Below are positions 2,223 to 42,900 of a stretch of DNA of 64,000 nt, one piece after another. The stretch lies in NCBI GenBank assembly GCA_000092065.1, contig CP000591.1. One strand, given 5' to 3'. Under the pieces are notes generated by a model that was given only the letters and a program-made list of their open reading frames with translations, was not told the origin of the DNA and did not search any database. Position 1 is the first letter of the stretch. Each line of letters starts with the position of its first letter. The translations under genes and the position numbers were made by a program. This DNA comes from Ostreococcus lucimarinus (taxonomy: Eukaryota).

Positions 2223-3764
2223 TCACGCCGCAACCGATTGAGCGTTCGCGTCGCCGAGCACCGCCTCGCTCGCAGTCGGCGGGGCGAGGATCTTCCTGCT
2301 CTCGTGGAAGTATTGATGCGGCGTGTGCACGCCCGCCTCGATTTCGACGCCGTCGTGAATCGCCGCAAACGTCATACCGCACGCGATTTGGTAGTGCATA
2401 TTCGTCGCCTTCTCGACAATCGCGTGCGACTTAGCACCAGAGATTTTCAACGTACCGAGCAACTCGTGCAAACGTGCGCCGTTATCCTTGACGCCAGACG
2501 TGAGCGTCTTGAACGGACAACCGTGCGCGTCCTTCACGCCCGGATCCGCTGCGATGCACTGACCGCACGCGTGCGGGGTGTAGTTGACGCGCTTCCCTTC
2601 CTTACCGTACGCGTGTCTGATACCATACGCGTAATCTTTTTCAAACTTCTCCGCGGAGCATTTCGGGTGCTTTGTGAACTCTGTCTTCCAAAACACGAGC
2701 GCCTGGTCCAGAGGCAAGCCGATGCCCTTCAAATACAGTTGCAGTTGTCGTCGACCGCCGTGCGTCAGGTGATGATCTTTCTTGAGCGCCTTGTAAAGCT
2801 GGCGCATGCACAGCGGGAAAGACTCTTGCGTGGCTTCGATGCCGGCGATCGACATCGTGCCGTCTTCGCCTTGGAAATCGTACCCGCTTCCCGATCGACG
2901 GTTGTGCACAGATTTCAAAAGCGGCGTCAAACGGTGAGCCTCCTTCTTTTCAAACTTGTTGAAGAGCGTGATGGCTTCGGCGACCATCTTGTTCAGCATC
3001 GTCTTAAACCGACCGAACACGAGTTGATCGAGGGTTTCTTTACGAATCCACGCGTTTCCGCCGATCAAGTACGCCCGTCTCGACTTGACGAGCGGGCACA
3101 CCTCTTCGAAACCGACGACGAACCAACGCGACGCCTCGCTCGCCGCTTCCTCGCACATCCTCTGGTACTCCATCGTCCCGAGCTTACCATCTTTACTGAG
3201 ACTTCGACGCATCTGCCTATACTCGTGGTCCGCCATCAAGACGTCCCGCAAATCGTCCCGTCTCTCCCGCACTTCCTTCTCGCTCGCCCGCGCGTAATCG
3301 TTAAACCCATTCGTCCGCATAAACTCCATCTTCGCGTCCAAACTCAGCTCACCGTACCGATACTTGAACAACTCCAACTCGTTCTCCCGAAACCATCGCC
3401 TGTGTTCTTCGCTTCGACAGCTCGCCAACCTCAACAAAAAATGACTCGTCGCGTCTCTCGCCGCGCCCTCCGCGTCAAACGTCCCCCCCGTCGTCCGTCG
3501 CATGTTATATTCCTCCTCCGCGCTCGCGATCGCCCGTTTCAATTCCTCATCCTTCTTCCCACCGCTTCGCGCGTCGTCGATCGCCCGCAAGACGCCGTAC
3601 CGATCCATCGCCGCGCGCTCCAGGTACTCGATGGAGCGTTCGTCATCCGGCGCGGTGTTGTACGCGTCCAACCGCGCCGCGTTTCCGCCGTACTTTCGCT
3701 CGAGCGCGGTCTTGGCGCGCGCTTCCGCTTTCTCTCGATTCGTGCGCAGCGCGCCGAAGACCAT
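2223..3764 (-). CDS. PRIM2: DNA primase large subunit
   Basis: 513-aa ATG ORF. The C-terminal Fe-S domain signature is LYLKGIGLPLDQALVFWKTEF...YAYGIRHAYGKEGKRVNYTPHACGQCI...HGCPFK. Confidence 0.9.
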   Translation of the reverse strand: MVFGALRTNREKAEARAKTALERKYGGNAARLDAYNTAPDDERSIEYLERAAMDRYGVLRAIDDARSGGKKDEELKRAIASAEEEYNMRRTTGGTFDAEGAARDATSHFLLRLASCRSEEHRRWFRENELELFKYRYGELSLDAKMEFMRTNGFNDYARASEKEVRERRDDLRDVLMADHEYRQMRRSLSKDGKLGTMEYQRMCEEAASEASRWFVVGFEEVCPLVKSRRAYLIGGNAWIRKETLDQLVFGRFKTMLNKMVAEAITLFNKFEKKEAHRLTPLLKSVHNRRSGSGYDFQGEDGTMSIAGIEATQESFPLCMRQLYKALKKDHHLTHGGRRQLQLYLKGIGLPLDQALVFWKTEFTKHPKCSAEKFEKDYAYGIRHAYGKEGKRVNYTPHACGQCIAADPGVKDAHGCPFKTLTSGVKDNGARLHELLGTLKISGAKSHAIVEKATNMHYQIACGMTFAAIHDGVEIEAGVHTPHQYFHESRKILAPPTASEAVLGDANAQSVAA

Positions 3765-35910: not shown

Positions 35911-36984
35911 TTAATGCGTCGACGTCGTCAAGTATGCGAACAACAGCATGGGCGCGCCGAAGAGGCCGACCATGGTGAGCATCGCCTGCGTGTTCAGCGC
36001 CTTGACTTCTTCTTCGTCGATTTCGCCCGCAAACTTTTCGTTCGCCATCTTGATCAGGTACTCGTCGTACGCGTCTAGTTTTGCGGCGTCCATGTAATCG
36101 AATAAGTCCGATTTCATCTTCTTGGAAGCCGTCGTCATCCCCCAAATCATTCGATCCGCTTGCTTGGACACGTTTCCGTACTGGTTTCCGATGCACCGAC
36201 GATACTGCTTCAACGCCTCATCTCGGCGCTGCAAGTTGTCCAGACAGATGGCGTAGTTGAAGATTATCCTCCCGCCCATCTCCGTCTTTTGCCCGATGCG
36301 ATCGAGCGCCCACGGCTCGAGCAAATCGAGCGCGTCTTGCATGTATCCTCGCTTCATCGCCTCGCCCGAACGCTCCAAAACCTCCCGCACCTCCGCGTAC
36401 TCCGCGTTCGTCAGCGTCATCCCCTGATCCTCGCGATATTTCGCCAATTTCTTCGCCACTCTCGCCCTTCGCGCCGCGATCGCCTCCTCGTCCTCCAACT
36501 CCTCCCGTTTAACGGTTCGTCCGCCGCCGTACGTCTTCGATATATCCGGCGGTCGCTCGAACACCCCCCACGTGCTCACCGACGGTTTATACACCGCGTC
36601 CTCCACGTCGTACCCCACCGCCTTCTCGTCCGCGTCGAACGGGTCGTAATCCCGGTCCCGCGTCAAGATGCGCACCGTCACCTCCCGTTTGCGCGTCGCC
36701 CCCGTCGCGCCGTCGCTCGCCGTCTCGCTCGCGAACGTCCCGTCCGTCGTCGACGCCTCCATCGCGTCGTCCCGATCGCCTCCGTCGCCCTCCGCGCGCG
36801 CGCGCTCCATCGCCGCCGCGTACTCGCGCGCCTTTTTCACGCGATCCTCCACCGACGCGCGCAGATCGATCCTCGCGTCCGCGTCCTCGCGCGGCGCCGC
36901 GCGCGCGCGAGAGCGACGCCGTCGCGCGACGCGCGTCGGCGCCCGCGGCCGCGCGACGCGCGCGACGCGCGCCGCGCGCGCCAT
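35911..36984 (-). CDS. hypothetical organelle-targeted protein with C-terminal TM helix
   Basis: ATG ORF of 357 aa. N-terminus: MARAARVARVARPRAP... (Arg/Ala-rich). Conserved-looking block: PSVSTWGVFERPPDISKTYGGGR. The middle is helical and the C-terminal anchor is MLTMVGLFGAPMLLFAYL. No family recognised. Confidence 0.55.
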   Translation of the reverse strand: MARAARVARVARPRAPTRVARRRRSRARAAPREDADARIDLRASVEDRVKKAREYAAAMERARAEGDGGDRDDAMEASTTDGTFASETASDGATGATRKREVTVRILTRDRDYDPFDADEKAVGYDVEDAVYKPSVSTWGVFERPPDISKTYGGGRTVKREELEDEEAIAARRARVAKKLAKYREDQGMTLTNAEYAEVREVLERSGEAMKRGYMQDALDLLEPWALDRIGQKTEMGGRIIFNYAICLDNLQRRDEALKQYRRCIGNQYGNVSKQADRMIWGMTTASKKMKSDLFDYMDAAKLDAYDEYLIKMANEKFAGEIDEEEVKALNTQAMLTMVGLFGAPMLLFAYLTTSTH

Positions 36985-37042
36985 CGCGCGCGCCGCTCTC
37001 GCGCGATCGCGCGCGCGCGACCGCGCGACGTTCGCGTCTCGA

Positions 37043-37108
37043 GGTTCGACGTCGAAACCGACGCGAGGTTCGATCGCGCGCGCTCGAACCTCGCGATCGC
37101 GGGTTCGA
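37043..37108. promoter_or_regulatory. cluster of five GGTTCGA / TCGA(A)ACC motifs including a perfect 11+11 inverted repeat
   Basis: GGTTCGA occurs at 37043, 37067 and 37102. The inverted form occurs at 37052 (TCGAAACC) and 37084 (TCGAACC). GCGAGGTTCGA-N10-TCGAACCTCGC spans 37063-37094. The cluster lies between divergent ATGs at 36984 and 37139. Confidence 0.6.
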
Positions 37109-37138
37109 TCGCGCGCGCGCCGACGTCACTGCGCGTCG

Positions 37139-37432
37139 ATGCCCGCGACCGGGACGGCGTCGTCGCGCGACGAGATCGTGCCCCCGCGACGAGGCGCGCG
37201 AAATCCATGGGTGCTCGTCGGTGCGGGCGCCACGGCGGCGGTGTTGCTCGCGGGATTCGTCGCGTTCAGGGCTGGGGACGCGCGCGCGTCGCAGCGGATG
37301 ATGCGCGCGCGAGTGCTCGCGCAGGGCGCGACGGTGGCGCTGATGGTGGCGACGTCCGCGGGAGGACTGTCGAGCGCGACGTCTTGGACGCTCGCGCGTC
37401 CCGGCGCGGGCGGGACGGCGGGCGAGGGGTGA
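37139..37432 (+). CDS. HIG1 (hypoxia-induced gene 1) domain protein
   Basis: In-frame ATG at 37139 of ORF 36668..37432. Sequence RNPWVLVGAGATAAVLLAGFVAFRAGDARASQRMMRARVLAQGATVALMV matches the HIG_1_N pattern (NP.V..G...T......F..G....SQ.MMR.RV.AQG.TV). Confidence 0.75.
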   Translation: MPATGTASSRDEIVPPRRGARNPWVLVGAGATAAVLLAGFVAFRAGDARASQRMMRARVLAQGATVALMVATSAGGLSSATSWTLARPGAGGTAGEG

Positions 37433-38424
37433 CGGACGCGCGGGCGAACGCGCGCGGGTTCGCGGCGAGCGCGACGACGACGCGCGGCGACGACGACGCG
37501 TCGACGTCGCGCGACGGAGGCGCGAGCGATGGTGGGGAGCGCGGGCGCGACGGTGACGCGAGAGACGCGCGCGCGAGGCGGGACGAGGAGTCGCGCGCGG
37601 TGCTGCGCGAACGCGCGCTGCGAGCGGCGTTGAAGCGCGTGCGCGAGCTGGGATGGACGGACGCCGCCGTCGACGCGGGATTGAGGGATTTGAATTTGTC
37701 GCCCGCGATGCGCGCGATCGTTCGCGGCGACGCGGGGGCGGGCGCGAGGGACTCGGGACCGGGCGACGGGCTCGCGGGGGAGTTGGCGGGATACTTTGAG
37801 GAGTGCGCGGACGCGGCGTTTCACGCGAAGGTCGTCGCCGAGGGCGAGACGCTGCGCGCGATGAAGTCGCGCGAGCGCGTGAAGTGGCTGATGCGCGCGC
37901 GTTTGGAGATGATCGAGTCCAAGCTCGATTCGTGGCCGCGCGCGCTCGCCGCGATGGCGACGCCGCGGTACGCGATGACGACGCTTCGGCGTCGCGCCGC
38001 GCTCGCGGATTTCATCGCCGACGCCGCGGACGTCGACGCCTTGGACGTGCTTCCGGATTCGTTGGATACGTTTCGTTGGCACGCCGAACGCGCCGCGATG
38101 CTCGCGCTGTACGCCGCCACCGAGTTACGCTTGTTGACGGATTCGAGCAAGGATCGTCGCAAGACGTGGGCCTTTCTCGACGCCCGCGTCGACGACATCG
38201 CGCGATCCCGCGTCGACGTCCTCGAGCTCAAGTCGTACATCGACGTCTTCGCGCGCGACGCCGACTTGACGACGCTCGGCGCGTCGTTCGCGAGCAAAGA
38301 CGCGCTCGCCGCGGCGTTCGCGCCCGTCGCCGACGTCTTCGCTCGCGCGTCTCGCGCCGTCTTCTCGACCCCTTCGCGCGACGCGTCCGAGCGCGACCCG
38401 CCGCGCGACTCGCCCGATCGATAG
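37207..38424 (+). CDS. COQ9: ubiquinone biosynthesis protein COQ9 (start uncertain; conserved part from about 37590)
   Basis: RERALRAALKRVRELGWTDAAVDAGLRDLNLS... aligns with human [32 protein letters not shown]. Further matches: SWPRALAAMATP and WHAERAAMLALYAATELRLLTDSSKDRRKTWAFLDARVDD. The only in-frame ATG upstream of the domain is 37207, which lies inside the HIG1 CDS in another frame. Confidence 0.6.
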   Translation: MGARRCGRHGGGVARGIRRVQGWGRARVAADDARASARAGRDGGADGGDVRGRTVERDVLDARASRRGRDGGRGVTDARANARGFAASATTTRGDDDASTSRDGGASDGGERGRDGDARDARARRDEESRAVLRERALRAALKRVRELGWTDAAVDAGLRDLNLSPAMRAIVRGDAGAGARDSGPGDGLAGELAGYFEECADAAFHAKVVAEGETLRAMKSRERVKWLMRARLEMIESKLDSWPRALAAMATPRYAMTTLRRRAALADFIADAADVDALDVLPDSLDTFRWHAERAAMLALYAATELRLLTDSSKDRRKTWAFLDARVDDIARSRVDVLELKSYIDVFARDADLTTLGASFASKDALAAAFAPVADVFARASRAVFSTPSRDASERDPPRDSPDR

Positions 38425-38583
38425 TTTACCCGGTAGTCTTAATGCTCACGCGCGCGCCTTTAACCGACTTCGCGCGCGCTCGCCGTCGCGTTTTGTGTCG
38501 CTTCGGTCGCTCCACTCCCGGGTGTTTCACGCCCGAATCGTCGCGCCGCCGCGCGCCGCGCGTCACGCGCGCGCGCTCGAGCG

Positions 38584-41500
38584 ATGTCGTTCGACCTGCG
38601 CTGCGCCGTCCTGTGCTACGCCCTCGCCGGCGTCGCGCACGAGCTCGCGCACGTCCTCGCGCACGCCGCGCTCGCGCTCGCGAAGCGTCGCGGGTCGGTC
38701 GCCGTCTTCGACGCGTGCGCCGCGCTCGACGCGCGCGCGTCGCCGTCGTCGCTCGCGGCGACGCTCGCGCGCGCGCTCGGACGGTGGAGCGCGTTCGCGG
38801 ACGCGCTCGACGACGCGTCGTGCGCGAACGCGCGCGCGATCGTGCGATGGGCGGGCGCGCTGGCGAGCCTGGGCGCGGCGGCGGCGGCGACGACGCGAAC
38901 GCGAGGCGACAAAAGCGGAACGAGCGCGGCGCTGCGAGTCGCGTGCTGGGCGACGGTCCTGGACGCGGTGTGCACGGACGTGCTGGACGCGCTGCCGCGC
39001 GCGCGAGGGACGGTGCTGTGCGGGAACTTTGGGATTATTTTGATAAACGCGGCGTGGTGCGAGAGCGAACGCGGGAAGCGGGCGTTTGATTTGTTGGAGA
39101 AGATGGTGTACGTGACGATGATGCGAGGGGCGCAGAGCGGTGGAGTCGTGACGTTCGACGAGTGCCGTGAGAAGGCGCGAGGGGAGGGTGCGGCTGTGGC
39201 GCTGCGCGGCGCGAGAAGTCGCGTGGTGAACATGAAGCGCACGGATTTGAGCAAGCTCGTGCGAGCAAAGGCGGAACGCGACTGCGGAGGGGCGAAGATG
39301 GGTCGACAAAACGTCACGCGCATGATCGTCGGCCACACGCGGTTCGCGACGACGTCCAAGGCTACGTTTGACGGCACGCATCCGCATCAGTGGTCGCCGC
39401 CGCAGCAGTGTCTCGTGTACGGGCAAAAACAGAAAACGCCCGGGCCGACGCGCGTCGGCGTGGAGAATTACATCACGCACAACGGCGATTTCGACTTTTA
39501 CCAAATCAACAAAAACTGGTACGAGCTCGGTGAGATGCAGCGGTGGTTAGAAATCGCCACGGGACATCCCATGCCGAGCGTGGTGGATTCTGCCGCCATC
39601 GCTGGCGTTATCGATTTACTCAGAGCGCAGGGGAGCTTCGCGCTCGCCGCGAGATTTGCGGTGTGCGTGGGGCTGAACACGAGCGACGCGTCGAAGGACG
39701 CCCCCGTGCCAACGCTCGCGAAATTCGAAGAAATCGCGCGGTATTTTGAAAACGCTTTGGATGCGTCGCTGAGTGCAGGTAAACATACCGTTCGCGAGCT
39801 CGGCTTTCAGGCGAGCACGCGCGAGTTGCTCACGGAAAAGGTCGTATCCGCGCTCGAGGGCGAAGGCAAAGCAGCGATCGAGTGCATCAACTATTACATC
39901 GATGAAGAAATGGGATCGAGTCTACGACACTTTGTGCGATCGACGATCGATGCATTCTTCGACAACGATAGCTTATTCGTGACGAAGACATTTCTCGCCA
40001 ACGCGAAAGGTTCGTTTGGTTTGATGGTGACAAACTCTTTAGATGCGCATCGGCAGCTTTGCGTCGCCGCGCGGGGGCAAACTATAAGCATCGCGTTCTA
40101 CCCGAAGAAGGGTTTGATTTGTTACGGCTCTGAACAAGCCGCCGTTAAAGCGGGTTTGTCGATCCCGACACCAGGTGGTGACGTGTTGGCGAGCGTTCAC
40201 GGCGGTGAATTCGGCGACGACAACGCCGCCGTGCGTCTCGACTTGGACGATTTGAATGGCGAAATTTGTTTGTTAGATTGGGAAGACGGCGACGAACCCG
40301 CGGTGTCGTTCCCGAACTCGCACTTGGAGCAATACCCACTCATGGGTGGCAAAGTTACCGTCGTCCTCGCCGCTGAAGGTACATCTGGCGTGAGCAAGTC
40401 AACCATCGGAACGCCTGCGCAGAGTCTCGTCATGCGCAAGCCGAGCCTACACGTGGGCGTTAGCGTGGACAAGAAGCTGTTTCGCCGAATGACTCGACTC
40501 GAAGGGAACGACCTCATCAAGCCGCTTTTACCCGATCGAGAGGACTTGGTGCTGCACGATATTCACGATATTCCCAAAATTTTGCGAAACATTCAGGAAG
40601 ACTGGCAAAATCGCCCACAGGCCACGATTAGTCTCAATCGACTCACGGCTTGGAACCTTGCGCGTTGTTTGCGGCGACGTCTCGATCGCCGACTCAACAG
40701 TACGACAAAGTCATCGCGTTCAATAGATGTCGTCGTCACCGGTTGTGAAGTGTCGCTTTGGCTAGCCGAACAATTTGCGGCTGATTTACAGCAAGCGTTC
40801 CCCCGGCTGACGGTGAAAGCTGTGAGCTCGAATAAAATACTCGGTTTGTTCGGCCAAGACATTCCCATCCCAACAGTGGGATTCCCAGACTCAAAGAAGA
40901 ACGATGACTTTACGGACTCTGTCGTCATTGTCGTCAGTCACTCTGGCGGGACGTTTGCGCCACTCGCGACTTCGAATCTCCTCGTGAGCTCCACGAGCTC
41001 CATCTTCGTCGTCGCCAGCGAATGGGACACACAAATCGGCAAACAACTCAGAGCGATCAAGTCTGATGGGGCCTTCTGCAGCCGTATCTTTAGCACAGAT
41101 GTTGGCGTCCGACCAGCTGAGCCGTGTTCGGTGAGCGTTGCGGCGACGCAGCAACTTTTGACGCAAATTTTCATGCACATGTCACTCGTGATTCTCGGTA
41201 ACGCCGATTACCGCAAGTACGCGGGCGCCGTGGTTACGAAGCACGACTTGGCGGAACTCGAAAGGTGCAATCAAATGAACATCACCGCGCTGGAAGAAAT
41301 AGTGGGAGTGAAAGCGACGGGCGAAAAGGTCGACTCGTCGACGGAGCGTAGTCTTCGAGCGCAAGGCGACGAGTGGTCCGATCACGTTCTCGAAGGCGTC
41401 AAGGGGTGGATGATGTCGTTTGCATACATCGTCGGCACCGTAACGGCGGGATACCCGCTCATCACCGGCGTTGCCGCCGCTTGTGGACTCGCGGCGACTT

Positions 41501-42900
41501 GGGCGTTTTACCTCACACGATTCTTCGACGCGTTGATTTACGTGTTTCTTCCTCAAATCAACATAACCATTATTCGTTTGGTGCAAGGACGAAACTTGCG
41601 TCATCGCATGACGGGTCGAACGGTTGTCATCGGCGACGTTCCGTGGGTCGCACAGGCTGCAGATGCGTTTCTGTCAAAGATTTTTGCATGCTCGTACTCT
41701 GCCGCTGGGTTGAACGTTCTCAGTGGTAATCCAAACGATCATCTCGTGCACCGACACACGCACCGCGTCGTTCGCGGCGCATTGCTCGTGGTCGGTCGTC
41801 CCGACGGTAGGCTCGCCGCGCTAACGTCCGCTGAGGCGACGACATCGCTCTCGCTCGCCCAAGCAAGTTCTATCCAAAGTTACGGCGGAACGTGCGAATC
41901 GATCACGATCGGGCACTCACCGTATAAGCTTCCACTATCAAAGAATGGTATCTTCCTCAAACGACACCGCCCGATGTACTTGTGCGAGAAGCTCGTGCTC
42001 GAGCGCGAGGGGGAAAAGAGTTTAGACGGTCGCTCGCCCGGCTCCTTGCTCGGCGTGTACAACAAGTATCACGAGGAAGGGGCGGAACTCTCTGTACATT
42101 CGCTTTCGCGTCGAAACGCGGTGCAAGTTCTCACAGCTTCGAGGATTAAGGCGGATAGACAGAAGGGTAATTTGCGCTCGGTGTTCGACGAAATCGACGT
42201 CAACCGCGACGGCAAACTATGCCTCGCTGAGTTCACGCAAGCGTACAAGAAAGTGGACGAATCGCTCACAGACGCACAAATAGCGAAGCTTTTCCGCGAT
42301 GCAGACGTTGACAACAGCGGTACATTGGACTACGATGAGTTTTGCGAAGTCATGAACCTTCCCGAAATGGACATGTTGAACATTCTCGAGGCAGATGCTC
42401 GAAACGAGGAAGGTTTGCTCATGGTGGAGCCGTCGCACGAAGATTATTTCGGGCAATCCATTCGACGAAGCGCACCGAAAAAGATCAAGGCGTACACTCT
42501 GGTGGAGTCTCAAGAGTTCAGCATGAGCTTGTACGAATCACGAATCGCGTCTTTGCAGCGCTTCGTCTCCATGACGGTGATGTTTCACCAAATGGGTGAC
42601 CGGGCTCAAAAGTTTTGGCGAAACGTCTCTTTCGGATATCTGGGATATCGCATGGATCGCACGCACAGTATCATGCGTATCGCCACCACGGCCTCACCCG
42701 TGAGCGGCGCTGAAGTGCGCGACCGGCGTCATTTTATCGCCCTCGTCACCGCGTTCAACAACGCGCTCGGCGTCATCGACAACTCCGGCCACATTCTTCT
42801 CTCTCGAAGACGCACGGAAAGCTACCGCCTCACATCGCGGCAAAAGTCCGCCGCGAGGCTTTCGCGTCAGAGCTCCGTCGCTAGCGCCACTGGCGCGTGA
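38584..42900 (+). CDS. 1438-aa multidomain protein: class-II glutamine amidotransferase + SIS domains (GlmS/GFAT-like) + EF-hand pair
   Basis: GATase-2 features: LCGNFGIIL (Cys146), MRGAQSGGVV and GHTRFATTSKATFDGTHPHQW. SIS features: VVVTGCEVSLWLAEQF and VVIVVSHSGGTFAPLA. EF-hands: DVNRDGKLCLAEF and DVDNSGTLDYDEF. The 145-aa N-terminal extension is hydrophobic and contains HELAH. Confidence 0.8.
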   Translation: MSFDLRCAVLCYALAGVAHELAHVLAHAALALAKRRGSVAVFDACAALDARASPSSLAATLARALGRWSAFADALDDASCANARAIVRWAGALASLGAAAAATTRTRGDKSGTSAALRVACWATVLDAVCTDVLDALPRARGTVLCGNFGIILINAAWCESERGKRAFDLLEKMVYVTMMRGAQSGGVVTFDECREKARGEGAAVALRGARSRVVNMKRTDLSKLVRAKAERDCGGAKMGRQNVTRMIVGHTRFATTSKATFDGTHPHQWSPPQQCLVYGQKQKTPGPTRVGVENYITHNGDFDFYQINKNWYELGEMQRWLEIATGHPMPSVVDSAAIAGVIDLLRAQGSFALAARFAVCVGLNTSDASKDAPVPTLAKFEEIARYFENALDASLSAGKHTVRELGFQASTRELLTEKVVSALEGEGKAAIECINYYIDEEMGSSLRHFVRSTIDAFFDNDSLFVTKTFLANAKGSFGLMVTNSLDAHRQLCVAARGQTISIAFYPKKGLICYGSEQAAVKAGLSIPTPGGDVLASVHGGEFGDDNAAVRLDLDDLNGEICLLDWEDGDEPAVSFPNSHLEQYPLMGGKVTVVLAAEGTSGVSKSTIGTPAQSLVMRKPSLHVGVSVDKKLFRRMTRLEGNDLIKPLLPDREDLVLHDIHDIPKILRNIQEDWQNRPQATISLNRLTAWNLARCLRRRLDRRLNSTTKSSRSIDVVVTGCEVSLWLAEQFAADLQQAFPRLTVKAVSSNKILGLFGQDIPIPTVGFPDSKKNDDFTDSVVIVVSHSGGTFAPLATSNLLVSSTSSIFVVASEWDTQIGKQLRAIKSDGAFCSRIFSTDVGVRPAEPCSVSVAATQQLLTQIFMHMSLVILGNADYRKYAGAVVTKHDLAELERCNQMNITALEEIVGVKATGEKVDSSTERSLRAQGDEWSDHVLEGVKGWMMSFAYIVGTVTAGYPLITGVAAACGLAATWAFYLTRFFDALIYVFLPQINITIIRLVQGRNLRHRMTGRTVVIGDVPWVAQAADAFLSKIFACSYSAAGLNVLSGNPNDHLVHRHTHRVVRGALLVVGRPDGRLAALTSAEATTSLSLAQASSIQSYGGTCESITIGHSPYKLPLSKNGIFLKRHRPMYLCEKLVLEREGEKSLDGRSPGSLLGVYNKYHEEGAELSVHSLSRRNAVQVLTASRIKADRQKGNLRSVFDEIDVNRDGKLCLAEFTQAYKKVDESLTDAQIAKLFRDADVDNSGTLDYDEFCEVMNLPEMDMLNILEADARNEEGLLMVEPSHEDYFGQSIRRSAPKKIKAYTLVESQEFSMSLYESRIASLQRFVSMTVMFHQMGDRAQKFWRNVSFGYLGYRMDRTHSIMRIATTASPVSGAEVRDRRHFIALVTAFNNALGVIDNSGHILLSRRRTESYRLTSRQKSAARLSRQSSVASATGA

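Follow-up and report, generated by a model that had tools for sequence, protein, structure and literature searches.

Polycistronic nuclear mRNAs of green algae are recent exceptions to the textbook picture, and those described consist of separate open reading frames (ORFs) or, at most, of ORFs that overlap in their stop and start codons. Leaky scanning has been shown by mutagenesis for green-algal bicistronic nuclear loci (PMC11892635, PMC7896298). Their first ORF is about 300 nt long and has a weak Kozak context, AUG codons are depleted, and small mitochondrial proteins are frequent among the products; the ORFs are non-overlapping, with a median spacer of 40-183 nt (PMC7896298, PMC11892635), and overlap beyond this spacer type is confined in published sets to overlapping stop and start codons (PMC11291117). 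Here we describe a locus of Ostreococcus lucimarinus CCE9901, located in a 64,000-nt stretch of DNA (the window; all positions are those of this whole stretch), in which an ORF for a HIG1-domain protein (ORF 1) is followed on the same strand by an ORF for the ubiquinone-synthesis protein COQ9 (ORF 2). We read the pair as an overlapping bicistron in which COQ9 would be started by leaky scanning at an ATG inside HIG1, at position 37207, and give this reading a probability of about 0.58 from sequence comparison. As in the described loci, ORF 1 is short and begins in a weak Kozak-like context (294 nt, U at -3). The non-overlapping arrangement of those loci is not shared; the ORF 1 stop would come 226 nt after the start of ORF 2, which is read in the -1 frame. 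We found no HIG1-COQ9 pair in the main text of PMC7896298 or PMC11892635, nor in the supplement text of Duenas et al. 2025, and a literature search on HIG1-COQ9 or on Ostreococcus COQ9 found no report.

The ORF 1 product matched Pfam HIG_1_N (PF04588, E=1.2e-18, profile positions 2-51 of 52) and carries the two-helix transmembrane hairpin and the Q-x-x-M-R-x-R-V-x-x-Q motif of the HIG1/HIGD/Rcf1 family, in agreement with an earlier note on this DNA that had called a well-conserved HIG1 ORF here. The segment SQRMMRARVLAQGATV is kept in every Ostreococcus-like clade compared, and core amino-acid identity between the window and five other clades was 64-84%. In databases this ORF is represented by metagenome "hypothetical protein" calls only, with no XP_/UniRef, RefSeq or UniProt accession, and HIG1 is apparently missing from the O. 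lucimarinus reference protein set.

ORF 2 belongs to the COQ9 family, with matches to Protein Data Bank (PDB) entries 4RHP, 6DEW and 6AWL (E ~2e-15, covering residues 88-283 of the 6AWL chain) and to Pfam COQ9 (PF08511, 1.4e-13); the COQ9_N match (PF21392) was weak, at 0.006 and 16.7 bits, and fell under its cutoff. The COQ9 frame, which ends with the stop codon at 38422-38424, is uninterrupted as far back as 36106. The earlier note had described 37207 as the sole in-frame ATG before the conserved block of a frame open far upstream, and had placed the beginning of COQ9 similarity upstream of the next in-frame ATG, 37708; both descriptions held. Similarity to the human COQ9 structures 4RHP and 6AWL begins at ~37576, about 130 nt upstream of 37708, and from 37603 on relatives share the invariant block LRERALRAAL. 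The current reference entry, the 238-aa "predicted protein" XP_001420281.1 / UniRef100_A4S4K5 (P0017), is identical to the window ORF 37708-38424. Its start therefore lies inside the fold, and the model is N-terminally truncated, missing ~44 fold residues and any targeting signal. On alignment and structure matches we rejected 37708 as the COQ9 start. A 405-aa COQ9 model beginning at 37207 is present in no source.

The ATG at 37207 is formed by the HIG1 Pro-Trp codons CCA TGG, 68 nt into HIG1 in its -1 (equivalently +2) frame. As the earlier note had stated, it lies in another frame than HIG1 and no further ATG occurs in any frame between 37139 and 37207. The ATG listing of the window also contained no ATG in any frame between 36668 and 37139, and none on the plus strand in 36985-37138. 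The HIG1 internal Met codons (37298, 37301 and 37343) are all 3' of 37207. The context of the HIG1 ATG itself (gtcgATGc) was likewise correctly described as weak, with a T at -3, a position where 22 of the 26 long ORFs of the window have a purine and only one has T.

From this arrangement we infer a single mRNA, leaky scanning, and a COQ9 presequence that is cleaved. One transcript would begin in the 154-nt region upstream of 37139, and part of the scanning 40S subunits would initiate at 37139, in its poor context, to produce the 97-aa HIG1 membrane protein. Subunits skipping this codon would reach AUG 37207, 68 nt further on in the -1 frame, before meeting any internal HIG1 Met codon, and would produce a 405-aa COQ9 precursor. 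The first ~75 residues of the precursor would share their nucleotides with the transmembrane hairpin and tail of HIG1, and the resulting Arg/Gly/Ala-rich peptide would work as a mitochondrial presequence, to be cut off near RGF/AAS.

Evidence for translation across this region was obtained by comparing seven Ostreococcus-like clades: the window with L001, L016-L018 and L019; L004/L011; L006/L009; L013/L024; L014; L015; and L028. COQ9 protein identity between these clades is 50-67%. Wherever contigs reach, the synteny is the same (ABC transporter, divergent minus-strand gene, HIG1, COQ9 and a large EF-hand protein), and same-strand colinearity of HIG1 and COQ9, as seen across species in the known bicistrons, is kept in all seven clades and in an outgroup genus. 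In all seven, COQ9 is in the -1 frame of HIG1, and no stop closes that frame anywhere across HIG1. The HIG1 stop is separated from the LRER of the invariant block by 170-227 nt, and the 11 different spacings observed are all 2 mod 3. The interval is therefore under coding constraint and translated in the COQ9 frame, from a start at or before the HIG1 stop. On this comparison, COQ9 translation must begin upstream of 37453, the stretch from RGFAAS onward being conserved at the protein level. The earlier note had called for comparing both frames in orthologous loci over the overlap; the frame relation proved to be kept, and relatives with a conventional ATG and no conservation of the alternative frame were not found within the genus.

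Reading on from the HIG1 ATG, the first ATG met belongs to the COQ9 frame in six of the seven clades, and this frame is open from there into COQ9. This alternative-frame ATG is built in three non-homologous ways. The CCA-TGG form at the HIG1 Pro-Trp is found in the window clade (including L019), L004/L011, L014 and L015; L013/L024 have ATA-TGC, in which a HIG1 Cys replaces Leu/Val; and L028 has GAA-TGC. CCA is a rare Pro codon, used 7 times in 116 when this site is excluded, and 2 times in 62 in the clades that use CCA here. The HIG1 and alternative-frame AUGs are 56-83 nt apart, with no AUG between them in the other clades as well; this AUG depletion between the two starts matches the known bicistrons, though over the mere 68 nt of the window it is weak by itself. 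Five of the seven clades, that of the window among them, and the outgroup have a pyrimidine (T or C) at -3 of the HIG1 ATG; among the six clades with an alternative-frame ATG inside HIG1 the proportion is 5/6, the exception being L028 (A). Pairing of a weak HIG1 context with an alternative-frame ATG is expected if ribosomes skip the HIG1 AUG to reach the COQ9 AUG.

Chance expectations were estimated per clade by simulation, in which HIG1 was resampled with synonymous codons. The -1 frame of the window stayed open in 49% of simulated trials, and the probabilities of an open frame were 0.49, 0.15, 0.18, 0.12, 0.18, 0.15, 0.37, 0.42 and 0.14. An open alternative frame is not remarkable in a single genome of 75-80% GC, and significance comes from the cross-clade comparison only. 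The probability that the next ATG is in the COQ9 frame and that this frame is open was 0.045 in the window, 0.032 in L004, 0.019 in L011, 0.028 in L013, 0.127 in L014, 0.102 in L015 and 0.054 in L028. Three independent ATG inventions at ~0.03-0.05 each give a joint probability near 1e-4, an excess of alternative-frame AUGs over expectation.

A number of observations weigh against leaky scanning to 37207 or limit its reach. The clades are not fully independent, with identity at 4-fold sites of 0.43-0.72 compared with ~0.37 at saturation; since they share history, multiplying per-clade P values overstates the case. HIG1 synonymous sites were not clearly more conserved than those of COQ9, in a comparison of low power, and the Arg excess and acid depletion of the alternative-frame peptide did not go beyond codon-shuffling expectation. 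The context of 37207 (uccAUGg) has a pyrimidine at -3 as well. Extra upstream in-frame HIG1 ATGs are present at L011 and L015, where the "second" ATG depends on the transcription start site (TSS). In L006 and L009, HIG1 contains no alternative-frame ATG and its own start context is strong (acaaaATGa), as is that of L028 (A at -3). Upstream of the COQ9 fold, L009 is devoid of in-frame AUGs, and in its sister L006 the only in-frame COQ9 AUG lies upstream of the HIG1 AUG. Because of these strong HIG1 contexts and the AUG distribution in L006 and L009, another COQ9 route must exist in at least one clade. The L006 ATG (L006 3001-3146) is 145 nt upstream of the HIG1 ATG and opens a MATLSRVRWSTSASRRRV... 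N-terminus (MATLSRVRWSTSASRRRVAVAVAVRSS...) that looks like a classical transit peptide; HIG1 would there be fully nested in the COQ9 ORF, with the order of the starts reversed. Upstream of HIG1 in L009 (~2686-2730) there are two tiny ORFs, and the stop of the second (ATGAAATCC...ACAAAATGA) overlaps the HIG1 ATG (AAAATGA), which is in strong context.

One such route could use the HIG1 stop itself. In the window, a GUG of the COQ9 frame at 37429 overlaps the HIG1 UGA, and termination-coupled reinitiation or a non-AUG start at this codon, alone or beside 37207, would produce a 331-aa COQ9 with a very short presequence. A junction of the form (A/G)TGA with an NTG in the COQ9 frame is present in six of the seven clades, a true ATGA in L011 and GUG in the rest, from a background of only 3/26 (A/G)TGA stops in the window. 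L004 carries the homologous GTGA plus a new one, and overlapping stop and start codons have been reported in some Auxenochlorella bicistrons (PMC11291117). L009, lacking an in-frame AUG, requires an AUG-independent route, and its post-junction segment is long (29 aa) and Arg-rich; the pairing of GTGA with a strong HIG1 Kozak context in L006, L009 and L028 also favors restart. In L013/L024, however, the junction is GTAG/GTAA, which still reads as Val for COQ9 and still ends HIG1 but lacks the GUG, and GGGGTGA may simply be kept by descent as a dual-constrained site. The window presequence would be only 10 aa (MTDARANARGF), one Asp included, and the open -1 frame and the three independent alternative-frame AUGs would be left unexplained. 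A first ORF of 97 codons is long for reinitiation, the 100 nt before the junction gave no structure signal (fold z=-0.72), and green-algal experiments have argued against reinitiation as the main route (PMC11892635). We therefore consider restart at the junction, the main rival of leaky scanning, unlikely as the way COQ9 is made in O. lucimarinus. At least one clade likely requires such a restart or non-AUG start at the junction, which in O. lucimarinus may serve as a minor second route.

A fuller version of this idea, which we regard as doubtful, is that Ostreococcus species replaced a lost COQ9 start in more than one way: by a presequence overprinted on HIG1, with its -1 frame AUG invented three times, and by GUGA-coupled non-AUG reinitiation, the latter at least in L009 and perhaps, beside the first, in O. 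lucimarinus. The L009 route may then be a prokaryote-like termination-reinitiation in a nuclear cellular mRNA. In L004, the two GTGA motifs lie 12 nt apart (2989-3004, tcGTGAgggggtggGTGAggg); the first is a lineage-specific earlier HIG1 stop, and the second is homologous to the ATGA of the sister L011.

The same COQ9 protein would also arise if 37207 were the first AUG of a separate COQ9 mRNA, from an internal TSS at ~37140-37206 or from alternative TSSs. Ostreococcus genomes are extremely compact, and the one informative transcript is compatible with such an mRNA. This is P0086, a "complete" 412-aa ORF from an MMETSP transcriptome of the L013 clade, which begins with that clade's alternative-frame ATG and can be followed colinearly in the genome across the HIG1 overlap and on into COQ9. 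At least in this L013-clade species, one unspliced RNA thus spans the overlap and COQ9; P0086 shows a transcript reaching at least ~9 nt upstream of the alternative-frame AUG and no more. Its span, together with an inter-ORF distance of -226 nt, which is too short for a separate promoter located outside HIG1, is indirect evidence for one mRNA with both ORFs. An internal TSS would, on the other hand, have to fall in the 56-83 nt between the two AUGs. In most clades the weak HIG1 Kozak context stands beside an alternative-frame AUG with no intervening AUG, features that fit scanning from a shared 5' end and would be needless with a separate TSS, and the outgroup shows bicistron-like AUG depletion over HIG1 and its spacer. 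An internal TSS is on these grounds rather improbable. That 37207 is the COQ9 start, by either leaky scanning or an internal TSS, appears probable from the comparison.

It is very improbable that the locus is conventional, with 37708 as the right start, an assembly indel hiding an ATG (e.g., 37529) or a HIG1-COQ9 fusion, a first exon supplied by an intron, or a -1 frameshift fusion. The 238-aa model is the current RefSeq/UniProt entry, and COQ9 does occupy the -1 frame of HIG1, the geometry that a -1 frameshift requires; a start at 37708 nevertheless drops ~44 conserved fold residues along with any targeting signal. The earlier note had offered a 1-nt assembly error concealing a HIG1-COQ9 fusion as one explanation. 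Compared over 638-734 nt, four independent metagenome contigs of the same species (L001, L016-L018) show 3-4 single-nucleotide polymorphisms against the window and not a single indel; since the frame relation is moreover common to all clades, both the error and the hidden fusion are rejected. An unnoticed intron with a separate COQ9 first exon, also raised in that note, was ruled out by the lack of an upstream ATG, the 24 nt from HIG1 stop to RGFAAS, the whole-codon length variation and the colinearity of P0086. At the junction, some clades have GTGAG, which resembles a splice donor, but L011 reads ATGAG and the window GTGAC. For a programmed -1 frameshift, the slippery heptamer X_XXY_YYZ was absent in the window, L009, L013 and L014, and none was conserved elsewhere, and readthrough of UGA-C was rejected, as it would run on in the wrong frame. 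A search for an internal ribosome entry site or known RNA element returned no Rfam match, and fold z-scores around the AUGs and the junction were unremarkable.

Under leaky scanning to 37207, the overlapped COQ9 N-terminus (MGARRCGRHGGGVARGIRRVQGWGRARVAA...) is plausibly a mitochondrial import presequence, being Arg/Gly/Ala-rich and free of acidic residues over its first 29 positions. Arg-richness is the default of the -1 frame of a GC-rich transmembrane helix, which may explain why overprinting was easy. The RGFAAS motif is present in the window, L004, L006, L009, L011 and L013 clades; its RGF/AAS resembles an R-2/R-3 processing site, and we presume on that ground that cleavage occurs there. 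From ATG 37207 to the RGF motif there are 84 residues in the window.

A more distant Mamiellales-like genus, represented by loci L032 and L033 (GC 62-66%) and found via HIG1, served as outgroup. It has the synteny of the window (ABC transporter, minus-strand gene, HIG1 and COQ9), and in both the HIG1 AUG is weak and a long presequence closes with RGFAA. Unlike the window, it has a noncoding spacer of 97-119 nt, a COQ9 AUG of its own in good context (cgccATGa, L033) and no overlap, and its HIG1/COQ9 frame relation is unconstrained (+1 in L032, -1 in L033). The outgroup presequence is 65-88 aa long, close to the 84 residues of the window, with an acid-free first part and the ending (S/T)RGFAA. 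No out-of-frame AUG precedes the COQ9 AUG over HIG1 and the spacer. To judge by these features, L032 and L033 show the classical algal bicistron signature. The ancestor may accordingly have resembled the outgroup, with HIG1, a spacer of ~100 nt, and a COQ9 that started at an AUG of its own and carried a presequence of 65-88 aa; compaction of the Ostreococcus genome would then have removed the spacer and the old presequence, a new one being overprinted on HIG1. Placing the COQ9 AUG ahead of the HIG1 Mets removes competitors that the outgroup layout must tolerate.

Taken together, the conserved frame relation, the open -1 frame, the ATGs built in three ways, the weak Kozak context in five of seven clades and the outgroup layout favor the lead explanation of the earlier note, a dual-coding bicistron translated by leaky scanning past the weak HIG1 AUG. 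The features of the locus are given in Table 1.

Table 1. Features of the HIG1-COQ9 locus of O. lucimarinus in window coordinates.
Feature	Position	Strand	Remarks
Divergent intergenic region	36985..37138	+	154 nt long and common to HIG1 and the minus-strand gene (ATG at 36984); presumably holds the promoter and a short HIG1 5' untranslated region
HIG1-domain protein coding sequence (ORF 1)	37139..37432	+	97 aa, 294 nt; Pfam HIG_1_N
Proposed COQ9 initiation codon	37207..37209	+	Second ATG of the presumed mRNA
Putative dual-coding overlap	37207..37432	+	226 nt; frame 0, HIG1 transmembrane hairpin and tail; frame -1, COQ9 N-terminus
GUGA junction	37429..37432	+	COQ9-frame GUG overlapping the HIG1 UGA stop; candidate restart or non-AUG start in a rival model
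RGFAAS motif	37453..37470	+	COQ9 residues 83-88 counted from 37207; read as presequence end and processing site
COQ9 low-complexity acidic/Ser/Thr linker	37471..37575	+	Length differs among clades, by whole codons only
COQ9 folded domain (COQ9_N region and COQ9 C-terminal domain) and stop	37576..38424	+	PDB and Pfam matches, alignment
Reference-annotation ATG	37708..37710	+	XP_001420281.1, 238 aa; inside the fold

Just 3' of the junction, in the variable acidic linker, a CG-rich palindromic stretch (37475-37520, GACGACGACGCGCGGCGACGACGACGCGTCGACGTCGCGCG) folds better than its shuffles (z=-2.25, with 8 of 200 shuffles equally good). Over 36600-38900, GC content peaks at 72-81% at the 5' ends of the divergent pair, over HIG1/COQ9 and at the start of the next gene, with flanking gene bodies at 50-60%, and GC skew flips sign at the divergent promoter (~37000-37100). 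The divergent 357-aa ORF (35911-36984, minus strand) is without a Pfam match and is syntenic in all clades and the outgroup, where it measures 319-485 aa; only 154 nt separate its ATG from that of HIG1. Downstream, the 1438-aa protein encoded at 38584-42900 (plus strand) has Pfam matches to C-terminal EF-hands only (residues ~1197-1258), and its first ~1,190 residues are without Pfam assignment, although the protein is kept in synteny.

Several COQ9 homologues in databases need to be read with care. The apparent Met starts of relatives near RGFAAS in protein searches are mostly GTG codons in the DNA, chosen by prokaryote-type gene callers, and the "conventional M" of homologues P0006-P0012 was ruled out as evidence for normal ATGs. 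A profile search toward Micromonas or Bathycoccus COQ9 returned the same clades only. P0003, on an ENA contig of 341,886 nt, is a 98%-identical COQ9 call whose N- and C-terminal segments are frame-shifted relative to the window, which points to indel errors in that assembly and not to biology. P0004, a Logan assembly homologue of 37429-38200, shows systematic Ala-to-Val, Arg-to-Cys, Ser-to-Leu/Phe and His-to-Tyr changes, a C-to-T conversion pattern, and was probably assembled from bisulfite-treated or deaminated reads.

If the overlapping bicistron is real, it would extend the green-algal mechanism to a long out-of-frame overlap of two ancient housekeeping genes, and would provide a dated, multi-clade case of a targeting peptide born by overprinting while intergenic DNA shrank, in a genome among the smallest of eukaryotes. 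Gene callers that look for an ATG first will make COQ9-type errors elsewhere among compact algal genomes. Since Ostreococcus tauri can be transformed, the leaky-scanning and restart models are open to direct testing.

The closest known systems are the green-algal bicistrons (Gallaher et al. 2021, PMC7896298; Duenas et al. 2025, PMC11892635), such as the pair of TOM22-like and SDHAF3-like proteins. HIG1-COQ9 resembles them in that a short ORF 1, in a weak Kozak context, encodes a small mitochondrial membrane protein and is followed by a larger ORF 2 whose product serves mitochondrial biogenesis; the stretch between the starts is free of AUGs, and colinearity holds across species. It differs in that ORF 2 would begin 226 nt before the end of ORF 1, in the -1 frame, and its single mRNA is presumed from the arrangement of the locus.

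Dual-frame ORFs read by leaky scanning are familiar from the paramyxovirus P/C and reovirus S1 genes, and from animal mRNAs such as GNAS XLas/ALEX. These share with HIG1-COQ9 a weak first AUG, a second AUG some tens of nucleotides on that opens a long overlapping ORF, and a newer frame that is biased in composition and poorly conserved; unlike them, HIG1-COQ9 is a nuclear pair of ancient housekeeping genes in which the overprint apparently amounts to a targeting peptide only. Termination-reinitiation at overlapping stop and start codons is known for calicivirus TURBS, the influenza B M1/BM2 UAAUG and the victorivirus AUGA. The 4-nt (A/G)UGA overlap between the ORFs is similar there, whereas the start at the HIG1-COQ9 junction would be GUG in most clades and the overlap is missing in one clade; an 18S-complementary motif or structure was not identified either, on a check confined to the fold of the 100 nt before the junction. 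HIG1-COQ9 most likely belongs with the known two-protein mRNAs of green algae, its novelty being the 226-nt out-of-frame overlap.

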